Source: a virus
Lineage: Duplodnaviria; Heunggongvirae; Uroviricota; Caudoviricetes
Strand: one strand, 5' to 3'
DNA: 5,433 nt
Virus record (IMG/VR): IMGVR_UViG_2531839486_000011
In this document: positions 1,071-5,373 of the stretch, one piece after another
Layout of the letters: the number at the start of each line of letters is the position of its first letter
Position numbering within the stretch: position 1 is the first letter of the stretch
Made by a program: the position numbers and the translations under genes
The notes under the pieces: model-generated
Told to the model about the DNA's origin: nothing
The model's database searches: none
What the model saw: only the letters and a program-made list of their open reading frames with translations

Positions 1071-1175
1071 TTGAAGTTAATTGTATTACTTAGATAAACA
1101 CTATCATTTTCCTGACGTTAAGTTGTATCTTTGATAGGATTAAAAAACGTATAGATAGCTTATGCTACTGAGGGA
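1071..1175 (+). promoter_or_regulatory. AT-rich upstream region of the 1182-1991 gene with Shine-Dalgarno GAGGGA (1170-1175); promoter hexamers not resolved
   Basis: Several sigma70-like hexamers are present (TTGAAG 1071-1076, TTGTAT 1081-1086 and 1123-1128, TTGATA 1131-1136, TATCAT 1102-1107, TATAGA 1150-1155), but no pair has ideal spacing. The SD sits 6-7 nt before the ATG at 1182. Confidence 0.3.
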
Positions 1176-1181
1176 ATAAAA

Positions 1182-1991
1182 ATGACGAAAATTAGTGAAC
1201 GATGGAAGCACAATGGCATTACTGAAGGTTATTGCAATATTTGTGGGAAATATGGCTTTCTCACAAAAGATCATGTTCCTCCAAAGTGCGCCATAACCTT
1301 AGGCCCTGTTTTGCAGAAAACAGTTAGCGAATTTTTTGGTATTCAGGAACCAGTTAAACCATTAAATGCTAAAAATGGCTCTTATTTCAGAACCATTTGC
1401 AGCCACTGTAACAATAAGGTATTAGGTGGGCTCGATGTTGCAATTGAAAATGTAACAAAGTCCTTTAAAGAACAGTTAAGTCGATATATGAATGGTATGA
1501 ATGTATATCCATTCATTAGAATACCTTTTGATAGCATATCTTTCACTAAGGCTATGATTGGGCACGTGCTATCAGCAACTTCAGTTGAAGATTGTAAAAA
1601 AGAACCCGTAGATAGCCCCTTCTATACACCTTTAAAGGATTATGTTTTGGGTAAAAATTCAAGTTTTGAGGAAACTCATGATATTTACTACTGGTTTTAC
1701 CCACACAGAATGCACATATCCGCTCAAAGTGTAGCATTTATGAACGAAGGACATGTGGCATTTATTTGTGCTTTACATTTTTTTCCTATCGGTTTTATTA
1801 TCACAATGAAAAATGAAGGAACATACCCTGCCCACTCTACAAAATTAGAACTTGAAGATAAATTCCTTACATTTAATATGACCTCTATAAATTATGAGTA
1901 TACGACATTTCCATTTGTAAATCTTAAGGGAAACCAAATGTATGCGATAAGCAACGGTCATACTTGTGTGAGTTATCCAATAATTAAGTGA
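1182..1991 (+). CDS. Hypothetical 269-aa protein with N-terminal HNH-like (His-Me finger, zinc-ribbon) nuclease motif; AT-rich, probably horizontally acquired
   Basis: Long ORF with a good RBS. The protein has C18-x2-C21, D31-H32 (TKDHVPPK), Asn candidates at 62/65 and C73-x2-C76-N77 (CSHCNN), the order expected for a zinc-stabilised HNH fold, although the DH to second CxxC spacing (40 aa) is longer than typical. The C-terminal ~190 aa are unrecognised. Hand-sampled G+C is about 35 percent against about 50-55 percent in flanking genes (not computed over the whole gene). Confidence 0.75.
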   Translation: MTKISERWKHNGITEGYCNICGKYGFLTKDHVPPKCAITLGPVLQKTVSEFFGIQEPVKPLNAKNGSYFRTICSHCNNKVLGGLDVAIENVTKSFKEQLSRYMNGMNVYPFIRIPFDSISFTKAMIGHVLSATSVEDCKKEPVDSPFYTPLKDYVLGKNSSFEETHDIYYWFYPHRMHISAQSVAFMNEGHVAFICALHFFPIGFIITMKNEGTYPAHSTKLELEDKFLTFNMTSINYEYTTFPFVNLKGNQMYAISNGHTCVSYPIIK

Positions 1992-2044
1992 CGGCTAAAT
2001 CATACAATCTACGCATGTTCACTTTCTACATATACCATCTATAA

Positions 2045-2070
2045 TGTCCGCTGTTGGCACAAAGCGGACA
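2045..2070. terminator. Stem-loop between convergent genes (8-bp stem TGTCCGCT/AGCGGACA, 10-nt loop); possible weak bidirectional terminator
   Basis: Perfect 8-bp inverted repeat at 2045-2052 and 2063-2070. On the minus-strand transcript it is followed by UUAUAGAU; on the + strand it is not followed by a U-run. It lies between the stop of the + gene (1991) and the stop of the minus gene (2138). Confidence 0.3.
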
Positions 2071-2600: not shown

Positions 2601-3671
2601 TTACCCCCTGAAGCCCGGCGGAATTTCGTTATCCGGTTCAGAAATATGATTCACACAACGCTGGTTGTTCGTGCCGCTTACCGGGAGCAACCAGGGGTTC
2701 TCAAAATTCCGGTCCGGTCCAAAAAACGTCGTCGCTCGCTGAACAAATTCCGTTCCCGTTTTCCCGGTAGCCGCCAAGTATCTTGCGTAACGCCTCACGC
2801 CATCCAGCATGGCTTCTGGTGGCACCCCCTCGCGTAATCTGGCCTTCCAGGCACTGAAAGCGGATTTCTTCGGGTTTGCTCCGGCACGCAACGGGTACTC
2901 CCGCCAGACCTGTTCGAACACATCCGGATAATCCACTCGTCCCACAGACTGCCCGGTGTTTTCCGGGACTACCCGATCGGCTTCCCGCTGAATGGCGGAA
3001 TCGGCTTCGGGCTGCTGCAGTTGGTGTGATTGCTCCGGCCTTGCGGTCATCACCTGCTGCACAGCGCCCGAATCGGCTTTCAGCGCATACGCTGAATCGG
3101 CTTCCGGTGTCGTGCCTGCTGGCTGACCAAGATTGACGGTCTGAACATCCCCTGCCTGGTTCGTGGCGTTTTTTACGCCATGGACCATAGTGTTTTGATC
3201 TTCTTGATCTGTATCTTTATCTGTATCTTTATCTGTCGTGACTCGTCGTGACATGTGCGTGACATTTCGTGACGCGCCGTGACAATCGCCATTTTGTTCC
3301 CGCTTTCTTTCCCTCTCTCGCTGCGCCCTCTTGCGCTCTGCAGGAGATTTTGCGGTTTGCGAAATATTGCCGTTGTCCTCTTTAAGCACCTGGCGTTTTT
3401 CCCATCCAGTGATTAAATCACCATCAAGTACCCGCCCCTGCATCGTCTGCAAAATTGAATCAATTACCTCTTCTGTCACGTCGAGCGCACTTGCCAAATC
3501 TTCTGTCGTGACATCAATGTGACCTCGCGTGACATTTCGTGACGCGCTCACCAGGAGGTGGATATACACTGCCATCACTGTTGCAATTGGCTGCCCTGAC
3601 ACTCTGGCAATTGTTCGCCACTTAGGGTCATTTGGCATGTCATGCCATAATCTGAGCCAGGCGTTAGCCAT
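2601..3671 (-). CDS. Putative phage replication initiator / replisome organiser (O-like position), about 356 aa
   Basis: Track ORF 2601..3677 begins at a GTG. The ATG two codons in (3671-3669) has a better SD (GAGG about 5 nt upstream), so I place the start at 3671. It is the third gene of the cro-side operon. The coding sequence contains iteron-like phased repeats and encodes a low-complexity acidic linker (TDKDTDKDTDQEDQ) between two domains, as in lambda O with ori inside the gene. Domain identity itself was not recognised with certainty. Confidence 0.7.
   Translation of the reverse strand: MANAWLRLWHDMPNDPKWRTIARVSGQPIATVMAVYIHLLVSASRNVTRGHIDVTTEDLASALDVTEEVIDSILQTMQGRVLDGDLITGWEKRQVLKEDNGNISQTAKSPAERKRAQRERERKREQNGDCHGASRNVTHMSRRVTTDKDTDKDTDQEDQNTMVHGVKNATNQAGDVQTVNLGQPAGTTPEADSAYALKADSGAVQQVMTARPEQSHQLQQPEADSAIQREADRVVPENTGQSVGRVDYPDVFEQVWREYPLRAGANPKKSAFSAWKARLREGVPPEAMLDGVRRYARYLAATGKTGTEFVQRATTFFGPDRNFENPWLLPVSGTNNQRCVNHISEPDNEIPPGFRG
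3207..3284. repeat. Repeat cluster 1 inside the replication gene: 12-bp tandem ATCTGTATCTTT (about 2.5 copies, 3207-3236) followed by five CGTGAC motifs at 10-11 bp phasing (3237, 3247, 3258, 3268, 3278)
   Basis: Read directly from the sequence. Spacings of 10, 11, 10 and 10 bp equal one helical turn. Candidate origin iterons. Confidence 0.5.
3475..3547. repeat. Repeat cluster 2 inside the replication gene: (C/T)GTGAC motifs at 3507, 3518, 3528, 3538 (10-11 bp phasing) plus an inverted copy GTCACG at 3475-3480
   Basis: Read directly from the sequence. Includes a 21-bp exact direct repeat of cluster 1: GCGTGACATTTCGTGACGCGC at 3257-3277 and 3527-3547. Confidence 0.5.
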
Positions 3672-3741
3672 ACTCACCTCTTCTGATACCGAATCTTTTA
3701 CTCACGAGTTGCCGGAAGCGATTCGATATGGCTATTATCAC

Positions 3742-4167
3742 TCAATGCACTGCCACAGCATTTCCTGCCGGGCCACCACGGTTCATCTGATTGAAACCGG
3801 CGATTGCCACTGCGACAAAATCATCAGCGTCTCTCACCAGTCGCTCCCGCGTCTCCACCAGCTCCCGAAAATAAGCTGAACTGTGGCTGCGCATTCTGGC
3901 CACCAGCAAAGGTGGCATTGCCTTTTCGATCGCTGGTAACAACGCCTGAATTTTTTCAACTGCATCAGGGGTGTCTTTCTCTACCCAGCGGAAAATTTTC
4001 TGGGTATTGCGAGCCAGGGCTTCCGGATGGCTGTCGTCATACAGTTCTGGGAACGTCATACCCAGTTCAAAATAAGCCCTGGTTATTTCAGCTGCCGGAA
4101 CTTTTTCACCGTCCGGATGCGCCCAGGCATTCATCGCCATGCGGATGTGTTCATGCTTGATTTTCAT
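3742..4167 (-). CDS. ydaT: YdaT-like protein (CII-position protein / toxic component of the Rac-type YdaS-YdaT module), 141 aa
   Basis: Track ORF with ATG at 4167-4165 and SD AGGAG 8 nt upstream. The N-terminus MKIKHEHIR and the size match my recollection of Rac YdaT. It is the second gene after the Cro-like gene and overlaps its stop by 17 nt. Confidence 0.7.
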   Translation of the reverse strand: MKIKHEHIRMAMNAWAHPDGEKVPAAEITRAYFELGMTFPELYDDSHPEALARNTQKIFRWVEKDTPDAVEKIQALLPAIEKAMPPLLVARMRSHSSAYFRELVETRERLVRDADDFVAVAIAGFNQMNRGGPAGNAVAVH

Positions 4168-4432
4168 GAATCAAGCTCCTAGAAAGTGGTTGTGTTAACG
4201 TTTTGGTATCTTCCAGCTCGGGCCAAATATTCATCCAATCAAAAGGCCTTAGTTGCTGACGTGTAACTTCACCATTACTGGCTCGCTCAATAAGGACACA
4301 TAACGATGCCCCTAACACTTGACCTTTACTCAATGCCTTTCTTAGATAACCGATGCTGGTACCACACTCGCATGCAAACATACGCTGTTCATCTGACGAA
4401 AGAGAATTGAGAAATATTCTTAATTCTTCCAT
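4151..4432 (-). CDS. ydaS: Cro/YdaS-like small DNA-binding protein, 93 aa
   Basis: Track ORF with ATG at 4432-4430 and SD AAGGAG 6 nt upstream. It is the first gene of the operon divergent from the repressor. The motif ...IERASNGEVTRQQLRPFDW...WPEL resembles the YdaS/Cro-like family (recalled, not searched). Confidence 0.7.
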   Translation of the reverse strand: MEELRIFLNSLSSDEQRMFACECGTSIGYLRKALSKGQVLGASLCVLIERASNGEVTRQQLRPFDWMNIWPELEDTKTLTQPLSRSLIHENQA

Positions 4433-4532
4433 AGCTACTCCTTAGTAAACACAGTAAAGAATACCCACAGGTAAACAAAAGTCAATACCCACAGGTTGTT
4501 TACCTTGCGGTAATCGCATCTATTATTTACCT
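4433..4532. promoter_or_regulatory. Divergent promoter/operator region between the Cro-like gene and the repressor gene, with two operator-like sites TACCCACAGGTA (4462-4473) and TACCCACAGGTT (4486-4497)
   Basis: Minus-strand candidate promoter: -35 TTGACT (4485-4480), 16-bp spacer, -10 TATTCT (4463-4458). Plus-strand candidate: -10 TATTAT (4521-4526) placing +1 at about the repressor ATG (4533), with no SD, so a leaderless mRNA as for lambda cI from PRM; its -35 is weak. The two sites are 24 bp apart and overlap the promoter elements. Confidence 0.45.
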
Positions 4533-4952
4533 ATGGACAAATATGAATTTAGACGACAGCAACTCATCAAAATTCGTGATGAGAAATGCGATGGTAAAGC
4601 GGTTAACGTGGCCAGAAAGATCGGGCGCGAGCCTTCTTATGTATCAAGAATGTTGTACCCAGAGGGGAAAAAGGGAAAAAAACGGATCGCTGATGATATG
4701 GTGGAGATTATCGAAGAGTCCTTTGGGTTACCCCGGGGATGGATGGATGGTATCGTTTCATCATCAACGAACACAGCCTCCAGTTATGAAACAAGGGTTC
4801 TAACGCCACGACAACGTATTTTTTTAGATCTCTTAGACGAACTGCCAGAAAGTGAAGCGGATAACTTATTAAAAACTCTTGAAGAGAAAAAACAGTATTA
4901 CAATATGATCTACGAAGAAATCCGTAAAAAGAAAGCACAAAACGCATCATAG
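4533..4952 (+). CDS. Prophage repressor-like HTH DNA-binding protein, 139 aa (cI/RacR functional position)
   Basis: Track ORF with ATG at 4533 and no SD (consistent with a leaderless transcript). Probable helix-turn-helix around GKAVNVARKIGREPSYVSRML. It is divergent from the Cro-like operon. No peptidase S24 motif was recognised. Confidence 0.7.
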   Translation: MDKYEFRRQQLIKIRDEKCDGKAVNVARKIGREPSYVSRMLYPEGKKGKKRIADDMVEIIEESFGLPRGWMDGIVSSSTNTASSYETRVLTPRQRIFLDLLDELPESEADNLLKTLEEKKQYYNMIYEEIRKKKAQNAS

Positions 4953-4994
4953 CTCACCAAACAACTAGTCACCAGTTAAGACACCGCAAAAAGT

Positions 4995-5035
4995 TACCCA
5001 TGGGTATTTACTTTTTAAATACCTATGGGTATCCT
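4995..5035 (+). promoter_or_regulatory. OL/PL-like region: perfect 12-bp palindrome TACCCATGGGTA (4995-5006) and near-copy TACCTATGGGTA (5020-5031) flanking a candidate promoter (-35 TTTACT 5007-5012, -10 TATCCT 5030-5035)
   Basis: Palindromes read directly from the sequence. They share the TACCCA...GGTA half-sites of the two sites in the divergent region, with a similar 25-bp centre spacing. Located downstream of the repressor gene and upstream of the small + strand genes. Confidence 0.45.
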
Positions 5036-5217
5036 TCTTTTCATACCAACCCACCCCGCCCCACAGAATGCAGGGCAATACTTCGAGTTACCAGGCAGTG
5101 GTCAGGGGTTAAGTAGCCAGCCCGAGGCGTAAGAACATGACGGCAGGGTTCAACTTTAATAACTATGCAGCAGGTTTTTGTTCCGCTACCCCGGCGTTAA
5201 GGGGAAATGAGGTCAGC

Positions 5218-5373
5218 ATGGATACTATCGATCTTGGCAACAGCGAATCTCTGGTATGTGGCGTGTTCCCCAACCAGGACGGTACGTTCACCGCGATGAC
5301 GTATACCAAAAGCAAAACGTTTAAAACCGAAAATGGTGCCCGTCGCTGGCTGGAAAGAAACTCAGGTGAGTGA
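5218..5373 (+). CDS. Small prophage protein, 51 aa, YdfA/YdaF-like (DUF1391-like); alternative upstream start at 5137 gives 78 aa
   Basis: The track ORF is 5137..5373. The internal ATG at 5218 has a better SD (GAGGT 5-6 nt upstream) and gives MDTIDLGNSESLVCGVFPNQDGTFTAMTYTKSKTFKTENGARRWLERNSGE, the size and sequence type I recall for the small proteins next to Rac/Qin repressors. Confidence 0.6.
   Translation: MDTIDLGNSESLVCGVFPNQDGTFTAMTYTKSKTFKTENGARRWLERNSGE

Follow-up and report, generated by a model that had tools for sequence, protein, structure and literature searches.

The locus and its features

The stretch of DNA analysed here (the window) comprises 5,433 nucleotides (nt) of the virus record IMGVR_UViG_2531839486_000011, assigned to the Caudoviricetes, and open reading frame (ORF) calls together with profile scans identify it as part of a Qin/Rac-type lambdoid prophage. 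The gene under study is an ORF at 1182-1991, located between a hok/mok/sok locus and a DUF977/Ren-like gene, whose product of 269 amino acids (aa) is a likely zinc-dependent DNA-cutting enzyme with an HNH-type motif at its N-terminus, judged from its sequence relatives. An earlier annotation made without database searches (the sequence-only reading) had noted the ORF, its AT-richness, its Shine-Dalgarno sequence, its convergent orientation and its Cys/His/Asn motif, all of which are indeed present. The gene lies in a 1032-bp cassette with a recombination-type site at each end, and the same pair of sites encloses unrelated, largely anti-phage cargo in other prophages. The features of the cassette are the following:

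1038-2069, + strand: complete mobile cassette of 1032 bp, comprising left site, putative promoter region, HNH gene and right site
1038-1061, no strand: left boundary site, GAGCGA class, GTCCGCTTT GAGCGA AAAGCAGAC (arm-spacer-arm, 9-6-9)
1112-1140, + strand: putative own promoter, found by eye; -35 CTGACG (1112-1117), 17-nt spacer, extended -10 TG (1132-1133)-n-TAGGAT (1135-1140)
1170-1174, + strand: Shine-Dalgarno sequence GAGGG, 8 nt before the ATG; conserved in the P2-like phage pro147 and in plasmids
1182-1991, + strand: target ORF, ATG start, 269 aa; protein identical to WP_000161640.1 on plasmids; PHROG 21495, function unknown
1233-1412, + strand: HNH / His-Me finger core, residues 18-77; C18xxC21, D30-H31-V-P-P-K, insertion of ~22 aa, C73xxC76-N77
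1436-1988, + strand: C-terminal domain, residues ~86-269; helical part, then beta-rich part
2046-2069, no strand: right boundary site, TGGCAC class, GTCCGCTGT TGGCAC AAAGCGGAC (9-6-9)

The GC content across 1100-2000 is 0.325-0.38, against 0.41-0.61 in the adjoining backbone. The claim that the gene is more AT-rich than everything around it thus holds for that backbone, but not for the immunity region (4400-4600 and 4800-5000), where GC also falls to ~0.36, so that the target ORF is not the sole AT-rich stretch. The cassette as a whole has a GC content of 0.35, compared with about 0.5 in its flanks, which is the foreign composition of a moron in the sense of Hendrix. Within it, the ORF is flanked by conserved non-coding sequence (120 nt upstream and 78 nt downstream), and the cassette contains neither a second ORF of at least 70 aa nor any Rfam match. 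A consensus scan called no promoter in 1062-1181; the putative extended -10 promoter is weak and below the threshold of that scan, it lies in the cassette portion conserved in pro147, and the gene may use it for its own expression. The ORF is convergent to the leftward operon formed by the YdaS/Cro-like, YdaT-like, replication protein and DUF977/Ren-like genes, all on the - strand. Comparison with six other copies yields ratios of nonsynonymous to synonymous substitution rates (dN/dS) of 0.06-0.19, and on this measure the gene is under purifying selection.

Boundaries of the cassette

The two boundary sites are related 24-nt imperfect palindromes, and none of 200 shuffles of the window gave a match. 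The right one coincides with what the sequence-only reading had recorded as a stem-loop at 2045-2070. The hairpin does exist, with 7-bp arms GTCCGCT/AGCGGAC and one extra U-A pair at 2045/2070; as a terminator it was rejected, given that no T-run follows it on either strand and that it is not called as one, and the region folds no better than shuffled sequence (z = -0.1). It is instead the right-hand recombination site.

That the gene was acquired separately from the prophage, as had been proposed from its composition, is borne out by three comparisons. In blastn searches against IncF plasmids (loci L009 and L010), identity reaches 99.6-99.7% over exactly 1038-2069/2061 of the window and nowhere else. 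Positions 1096-2069 match the P2-like phage pro147 at 94.5% nucleotide identity, with an abrupt end on both sides. Finally, the prophage of E. coli MS8345 has a backbone 98-99% identical to that of the window, but homology is lost at 1052, where the left spacer ends, and is regained at 2043; its slot is filled by a different two-gene cassette of 2.2 kb, with the same GAGCGA site on the left and the TGGCAC site on the right (locus L015, sites at 760-783 and 2976-2999).

Evidence for site-specific cassette exchange

Plasmid NZ_CP020517 carries four modules set apart by the same sites: A, a gene for a hypothetical protein of 476 aa; B, a gene for a 200-aa tyrosine recombinase; C, the HNH gene; and D, DUF2254 with betT. 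Plasmid NZ_CP084503 has them in the order C-B-A-D without any change of orientation, and its four junction sites (T1 to T4) are exact reciprocal hybrids of the sites S1 to S4 of the first plasmid, S1 being joined with S3 within GAGCGA and S2 with S4 within TGGCAC. Specifically, T1 consists of S1 left and S3 right, T3 of S3 left and S1 right, T2 of S4 left and S2 right, and T4 of S2 left and S4 right. The plasmid coordinates are as follows:

L009: sites at 3197-3220, 5259-5282, 5943-5966, 6951-6974 and 10624-10647
L010: sites at 5943-5966, 6951-6974, 7635-7658 and 9697-9720

At the crossover points the identity common to both sites is just 7-8 nt, which is too short for RecA-dependent recombination and typical of strand exchange in the spacer of a tyrosine-recombinase site. 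RecA-type homologous recombination was rejected as the origin of the boundaries on account of this short shared identity and of the exactly reciprocal hybrid sites.

The site pair extends well beyond these plasmids. A scan of IMG/VR with the 18-base core of the TGGCAC site retrieved 116 viral contigs, where about 2 were estimated by chance. In 70 of these 116 contigs a GAGCGA-class site is located 0.4-4.7 kb upstream in the same orientation (estimated chance ~8e-4 per locus); GAGCGA sites were counted only if they lay within 8 kb upstream of a TGGCAC site. The scan for the GAGCGA class used 15 specified bases, for which ~100 chance matches were estimated, and loci L166-L228 were left out. Across the 70 contigs, the DNA between the paired sites was grouped by sequence into 23 classes; each holds one to three genes, in either orientation, and most are AT-rich. 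The HNH cassette is class 1, found in 11 viral contigs. Twelve classes, the HNH class among them, occupy the hok/DUF977 backbone of the window, in which homology sets in again with the base directly following the TGGCAC site. The slot is variable among related prophages, a comparison that the sequence-only reading had proposed; it is empty or holds at least 12 alternative cargoes in the same backbone, the variable presence that Hendrix-type morons display.

The distribution of half-sites indicates where the exchange takes place. The outer half-sites, GTCCGCTTT and AAAGCGGAC, are constant across the classes in the hok/DUF977 backbone, whereas those facing the cargo differ between classes: the inner GAGCGA arm has 16 variants, and 54 of 56 match the majority variant of their own class. 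Outer half-sites thus go with the backbone and inner ones with the cargo, which places the exchange inside the spacers. Moreover, because the spacers at the two cassette ends differ, insertion by a single crossover is not expected, and the pattern fits replacement by two crossovers. Reciprocal hybrid sites, crossovers confined to the spacer and a site pair kept around unrelated cargo are hence all found, as would be looked for in cassette exchange. The asymmetry of the site pair also sets the orientation of a gene in the slot. The suggestion that the gene points against the operon in the manner of morons is consequently not supported, as the direction of the gene is fixed by the sites and other cargo classes point either way.

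According to the model that these observations suggest, the cassette would be moved by a site-specific double exchange at the GAGCGA and TGGCAC sites, and the likeliest catalyst would be the 200-aa tyrosine recombinase, itself one module of such arrays. This protein (WP_001752951) consists of a Phage_integrase catalytic domain only (E 1e-17), its closest solved relative is XerD (E ~1e-3), and its gene is itself a TGGCAC-to-GAGCGA module. Its family is very large and carries generic names only, with at least 8,000 candidates, all at E<=1e-10; the best 120 relatives listed are 76-100% identical and come from many gammaproteobacterial genera (e.g., Proteus, Providencia, Pantoea and Idiomarina). 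At 93% identity the recombinase occurs in four viral contigs. In locus L051 (reverse-complemented, 3232-8642) it is found in a four-cassette array in the same slot, with the order G-326aa-T-recombinase-G-449aa-T'-18bp-G-314aa-T, and it also lies near the HNH gene in Erwinia aeris and Onishia. These associations make it a plausible catalyst of the exchange. The positions recorded for it are:

L009: 5301-5903, - strand
L010: 6993-7595, - strand
L017: 4458-5057
L041: 317-931
L051, L094, L110 and L123: also present

Regarding the other plasmid modules, module A (L009 3298-4728, - strand) encodes the 476-aa protein WP_001460374, is bounded by the same sites on IncF plasmids and has no Pfam or PADLOC match.

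The HNH protein family

The sequence-only reading had placed a zinc-ribbon HNH/His-Me finger layout at the N-terminus of the protein. The motif is present as described, except that the catalytic-type histidine is H31 and not the H32 for which an alanine mutant had been proposed. The motif residues C18, C21, D30, H31, C73, C76 and N77 are invariant or nearly so in 48 and in 100 homologues. Within the set of 100 distant members, whose mean column identity is 20%, C18, C21, H31, C73, C76, N77, G127, W171 and P202 are invariant, and G16, I20, L27, D30, P33, P34, L81, G82, D85, H128 and P244 are nearly so. The conserved residues of the C-terminal domain comprise D85, G127-H128, W171/Y173/P174, F200/P202 and P244.

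The family is widespread. Close homologues (n=92) are found in Enterobacterales, Vibrio, Pseudomonas, Alishewanella and others under placeholder names such as 'chaperonin' or 'metal-binding protein', and an exhaustive profile search recovered 1,714 family representatives across Gammaproteobacteria at E<=1e-3 (at the 50%-identity clustering level). Among the PHROGs, a full-length match is obtained to family 21495, of unknown function. In Pfam, the window protein itself yields sub-threshold matches only, to HNH_5 and zf-TFIIIC. By contrast, HNH_5 is matched by 61 of the 100 distant relatives (E<=0.1; best E 1.9e-6), Endonuclease_7 by 6 and HNH by 2, and four of the 100 match the PADLOC models of PtuB via the HNH core. 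Membership of the HNH superfamily is accordingly assigned transitively, because the window protein stays under the Pfam threshold while most of its distant relatives match. A profile-profile comparison (hhalign) with the PtuB alignment points in the same direction, placing G-YCxxC...L-DHVPPK...F-xIC-xCN on YCHLCE...LAVEHIKPK...FLLICTxCNS with E 6.5e-4; relative to the PtuB core, the family carries an insertion of ~22 residues.

An AlphaFold2 model of the full protein, built on the 48-sequence alignment, has a mean predicted local distance difference test score (pLDDT) of 93 and a predicted template modelling score (pTM) of 0.92. It contains beta strands at 15-17 and 24-31, the latter ending at H31, and a helix at 74-81 that carries C76-N77, and in this model the placement of H31 and C76-N77 is that expected of a beta-beta-alpha fold. 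Conservation, the model and the PtuB alignment taken together therefore provide a histidine after a beta strand, an asparagine on the following helix and two CxxC pairs, the residues expected of an HNH nuclease.

The remaining ~190 residues, which the sequence-only reading had been unable to assign, stay without assignment, as neither Pfam nor the PDB, compared by sequence and by fold, contains a match to the C-terminal domain. With both family profiles, sequence searches of the PDB returned nothing meaningful, BFVD gave as its sole match one uncharacterised Myoviridae protein, and NCBIfam has no match for the window protein. The Pfam scan likewise retrieved no NUMOD, IENR1 or other homing-endonuclease DNA-binding domain in it. 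No description of the protein family, of its accession or of the site sequences was found in the literature searched, which covers few subscription-journal papers, so that a prior description is possible.

Cargo of the slot

The 37 cargo proteins of the other 22 classes were scanned with PADLOC, with the following matches:

PD-T7-1: E 3.7e-157
ThsB: E 8.9e-128
PDC-S33: E 5e-119
PDC-S39 (3 proteins): E 2e-102
DrmD-like: E 5e-96
PD-T7-5: E 1.5e-40
AbiH: E 1.8e-27
PDC-S66, Ppl, LmuB and SduA: weaker scores

Judged from these profile matches, the slot is largely, though not exclusively, a slot for defence genes.

The commonest cargo class, present in 15 viral contigs, is the two-gene cassette of the MS8345 type. 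In MS8345 itself (L015 897-2876) it encodes two proteins, one of 332 aa that weakly matches GNAT and one of 319 aa that weakly matches a HEPN/RES N-terminal domain. PADLOC gave no meaningful match to this cassette (only PglX, E 0.009, for the 319-aa protein), which is a candidate for an undescribed defence system. In addition, a gene for epoxyqueuosine reductase, QueH, lies between hokD and DUF977 in many related E. coli prophages (L012 1893-2558; L013 2269-2934). It runs in the direction of the operon, and a degenerate site whose spacer reads TGACGC or TGATGC comes after it. QueH is either a backbone gene or the cargo of a third spacer class.

Distribution across elements and genera

The gene is patchy in E. 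coli, where it occurs in 149 of 5,426 genomes. Carriers of the HNH cassette include lambdoid prophages, the P2-like phage pro147 and IncF plasmids. At least 50 plasmids of Escherichia, Shigella, Klebsiella and Enterobacter contain it at >=99% identity; most are predicted to be conjugative, and the three that were inspected are of IncF types. In pro147 the cassette is inserted between the tail sheath and tail-fibre-assembly genes, a position that we take to be the Z/fun locus of P2, and this P2 version is found in 21 E. coli genomes. Only about 4 of the 116 loci with TGGCAC sites lie in P2 tail-gene contexts, which means that these sites do not serve the P2 hotspot in general. Vassallo et al. 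2022 (PMC9519451) describe the fun-bearing locus of P2 as a second hotspot enriched in defence genes, and a 2026 survey (PMC13586616) likewise places a defence hotspot among the tail genes of P2.

In most of 34 loci drawn widely from the Gammaproteobacteria the gene exceeds its flanks in AT content, and throughout this set it stands alone, with no conserved partner gene. Its commonest neighbour (9 of 34 loci) is a small serine recombinase, a type of enzyme recently proposed as a marker of defence systems (PMC13552941). The 129 immediate neighbours include four SMODS cyclases, a complete Septu PtuA and PtuB pair, a GajA/OLD-like ATPase, an NsnB-like ATPase and components of restriction-modification systems, as well as five resolvases, four tyrosine integrases and two transposases. 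Among single loci, a P2 remnant of Serratia carries the gene at its end, an inovirus of Vibrio has it at the accessory end, and the Pseudomonas and Motilimonas copies belong to a serine-recombinase island and to a small, variable islet, respectively.

A recurrent pair of genes for proteins of ~167 and ~259 aa was also observed by members of the family (L023-L025 at +1/+2, L026 at +2 and L021 at -7/-8). The 257-259-aa proteins of this pair are most likely the four matches to SMODS cyclases, of the type found in cyclic-oligonucleotide-based antiphage signalling systems (CBASS), as assigned by length. The ~167-aa partner resembles a two-transmembrane effector, and the pair looks like a minimal cyclase-effector system.

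Proposed role of the HNH protein

We consider it probable, with moderate confidence, that the 269-aa protein is a stand-alone nuclease directed against phages (or mobile DNA more generally) and carried as exchangeable cargo. The candidate role as an anti-phage effector, already raised by the sequence-only reading, gains strong support by association, since validated defence systems occupy the same prophage slot between the same pair of sites in other strains and defence genes recur among the neighbours of the family.

Several results weigh against this interpretation. The match of the window protein to Pfam HNH_5 (PF14279) attains 11.5 bits (E 0.3, residues 18-35) against a cut-off of 27.5, and the probability that hhalign assigns to the PtuB alignment is just 27%. 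Fold searches of the PDB with the AlphaFold2 model recovered no His-Me finger and no nuclease, so that structure comparison was uninformative and the HNH-like character of the N-terminus relies on the transitive profile evidence; modelled alone and without an alignment, the N-terminal 109 residues reach a pLDDT of 39. PADLOC-DB v2.0.0 (5,027 models) has no match for the window protein at E<=10, and its accession is absent from the DefensePredictor supplements. That the sequence-only reading could match the gene to no named defence family is consistent with the absence of an entry in PADLOC, NCBIfam and the searchable literature. Regarding the context, QueH occupies the slot region in some related prophages, others being empty, and plasmid module D carries DUF2254 and betT; because hotspots also hold such genes, guilt by association is probabilistic. 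Likewise, the neighbourhood counts are not fully independent, because loci L021-L026 share a context.

If the protein acts as proposed, its HNH core would cut nucleic acid with H31 as the general base, N77 together with D30 or D85 as metal ligands, and the four cysteines holding a zinc ion. The host must be spared somehow, because the cassette contains no immunity or antitoxin gene. In one option the C-terminal domain would limit cutting to a feature that the host lacks, such as modified or phage-specific DNA; by analogy, a type IV restriction logic like that of McrA might therefore protect the host, which we suggest tentatively. Alternatively, the C-terminal domain would keep the nuclease off until an infection cue is perceived, and abortive-infection logic of this kind seems to us only slightly less likely as a way of sparing the host.

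Other explanations of the gene were weighed against the anti-phage nuclease. An accessory function of a different nature is unlikely, whereby the protein would be a nuclease moron for plasmid or prophage exclusion, for DNA processing at induction or for counter-defence. The presence of the cassette on at least 50 mostly conjugative (predicted) plasmids as well as on phages would suit such a function, as would the QueH and DUF2254/betT genes that slot and platform also carry and the lack of a link between the protein and a specific phage target. On the other hand, most recognisable cargo in the site-bounded slot is anti-phage, the neighbours in other genera are defence systems, and the family also resides in chromosomal islands with no phage or plasmid genes nearby. 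The sub-threshold HNH_5 match, the fold searches devoid of nucleases and the source annotations 'metal-binding protein' or 'chaperonin' would equally be compatible with a non-catalytic zinc-binding protein (a regulator or adaptor) whose motif is a structural zinc ribbon. Such names carry no evidence, however, most distant members do match HNH_5, and the (near) invariance of D30-H31 and N77 in 100 members at ~20% mean column identity is unexpected for a purely structural ribbon, which renders this proposal very unlikely.

The second proposal of the sequence-only reading, a freestanding homing endonuclease or selfish nuclease that cuts cassette-less alleles and spreads by repair-mediated copying, fares no better and is highly improbable. 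An HNH motif with an extra domain is a common homing-endonuclease architecture, and the patchy distribution in E. coli would agree with it. Nevertheless, homing would be expected to leave co-converted flanks without fixed ends, whereas the boundaries are the same two sites that surround 22 unrelated cargo classes lacking an HNH gene. The neighbouring genes are wholly different in lambdoid, P2-like, plasmid, inovirus and chromosomal contexts, no homing-type DNA-binding modules were matched, and the gene is housed by temperate elements and plasmids rather than by conserved genes of lytic phages. As for the toxin of an addiction module, which would be held in check by an unrecognised small RNA or peptide encoded in the cassette, the proximity of the cassette to hok/sok in the prophage, and to toxin-antitoxin genes in the plasmids, could be invoked in its favour, as could the conserved non-coding sequence on both sides of the ORF. 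The cassette nonetheless holds neither a second ORF of that minimum length nor an Rfam match, and the nearby toxin-antitoxin systems are unrelated neighbours because they lie outside its boundaries; we regard this as the least probable of all the explanations considered.

Returning to the anti-phage nuclease, a broader proposal, possible and still speculative, is that the gene is cargo of an undescribed integron-like platform for cassette exchange and that the HNH protein founds a new single-gene anti-phage family, with its C-terminal domain as a specificity or sensor module. Under this proposal, the 200-aa recombinase and the two heterospecific 24-nt sites would swap self-expressed defence cassettes among lambdoid prophages, P2-like phages and conjugative plasmids.

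If the anti-phage role is true, a widespread single-gene family would be added to the anti-phage repertoire, and the protein would be a promising candidate for a novel mechanism that recognises infection or foreign DNA, because all of it but the HNH core matches no solved structure or named family. Probably the more important of the two reasons for interest is that the cassette boundaries point to a testable mechanism for rapid swapping of defence genes in phage hotspots, with cassettes shared between the lambdoid slot, P2-like phages and IncF resistance plasmids; the recombination processes at P2 and P4 hotspots 'still need to be elucidated' (PMC13586616). Upon confirmation, new defence genes could be sought by means of the site pair, in the way that attC serves for integrons, and the system would be a natural counterpart of engineered recombinase-mediated cassette exchange.

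The prophage backbone around the cassette

A near-identical prophage lies beside ompW in the enterotoxigenic E. coli (ETEC) strain 2265, where the target is annotated as 'hypothetical protein' WP_000161640. The other genes of the window are:

402-726, - strand: complete hok/mok/sok type I toxin-antitoxin locus (Pfam Hok/Gef E 3e-23; Rfam sok 110 bits)
2138-2560, - strand: DUF977/Ren-like gene
2601-3677, - strand: replication initiator, 358 aa
3742-4167, - strand: YdaT/CII-like gene
4151-4432, - strand: YdaS/Cro-like gene
4533-4952, + strand: DicA-like repressor
5137-5373, + strand: DUF1391/YdfA gene

The hok/mok/sok locus is situated directly outside the left boundary of the cassette slot. The replication-initiator gene holds iteron-like repeats at 3202-3283, consisting of three tandem 12-mers (TCTTTATCTGTA) followed by multiple CGTGAC-containing repeats, and a second iteron-like cluster at 3505-3546, 260 nt from the first; these clusters are probably the phage origin inside the initiator gene, as in lambda O. 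On either side of the DicA-like repressor gene, two clusters of palindromic repeats of ~13-20 nt (4459-4515 and 4990-5036, of the AATACCCACAGGT and TACCCATGGGTAT types) probably represent the left and right operator sets of the immunity region.

Comparison with known systems

The HNH core of the protein, CxxC...[D/E]H..PK...CxxCN, is shared with Septu PtuB and with other HNH_5/HNH-type defence nucleases (PF14279, PF01844), and the PtuB alignment spans exactly this core. Both occur in defence islands, and a few members of the family match the PADLOC models of PtuB. The target family differs from PtuB in the ~22-residue insertion within the core and in its unrelated C-terminal domain. A Septu-like pairing with PtuA was considered and rejected, as the cassette has a single ORF, no ATPase is conserved in the 34 loci, and the Septu system adjacent to the gene in L035 has its own PtuB.

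McrA is the type IV (modification-dependent) HNH restriction enzyme of E. coli K-12, encoded by the e14 prophage. The enzyme is similar in size to the target (~270-280 aa) and, like this putative nuclease, is encoded alone by a prophage, has one domain besides the HNH and lacks a methyltransferase or immunity partner; the likeness offers one way in which a lone nuclease could be harmless to its host. In McrA, however, the HNH domain is C-terminal, so that the order is reversed, and the non-HNH domains showed no similarity in sequence or fold. The C-terminal domain of the target, with no Pfam or PDB structural match, gives no sign of a modified-base-reading domain (SRA, PUA/EVE or the McrA N-terminal domain). 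An enzyme of the McrA type is therefore less likely, while a working like that of McrA is not made less so.

The target gene resembles P2 fun(Z), PD-T7-1 and PD-T7-5 (PMC9519451) in being small, AT-rich, unpartnered and placed in a variable slot of a temperate phage, and homologues of the latter two occupy the same site-bounded slot as the HNH cassette. They have no sequence relationship to the target, whose own anti-phage role is proposed from its context. Phage HNH homing endonucleases (I-HmuI and the Mob/Seg type) likewise combine an HNH motif with an additional domain and are patchy in phage genomes. The target, unlike them, has no target-gene association and no NUMOD or IENR1, and it is found between discrete site boundaries and also on plasmids and chromosomes.

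The exchange of whole cassettes is best compared with integron cassettes (IntI/attC) and with the pdif modules of Acinetobacter (XerC/XerD). Like the platform described here, both consist of short modules between imperfect palindromes, arranged in arrays whose orientation is kept on reshuffling, and both are associated with tyrosine recombinases and with defence-gene cargo. An integron cassette is defined by attC (R''-L''...L'-R', with a GTTRRRY core) and by an IntI-type integrase of ~320 aa with an IntI-specific insertion. With sites of the form GTCCGCT-N10-AGCGGAC, GAGCGA or TGGCAC as spacers and a recombinase of 200 aa, the HNH cassette was rejected as an integron gene cassette. The sites described here are 24 nt long (9-6-9), with heterospecific GAGCGA and TGGCAC spacers that alternate along arrays, and they possess neither the R/L-box structure of attC nor a dif-like sequence. 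The recombinase comprises a catalytic domain only and is itself a module, the cassettes carry putative promoter regions of their own, and the platform is located inside phage genomes and plasmids. Defence cassettes are known to be carried by integrons (bioRxiv 10.1101/2024.07.02.601686). The cassette platform is a more surprising result than the HNH protein that it carries; it follows a logic like that of integrons and pdif modules with different sites, a different recombinase and different hosts.

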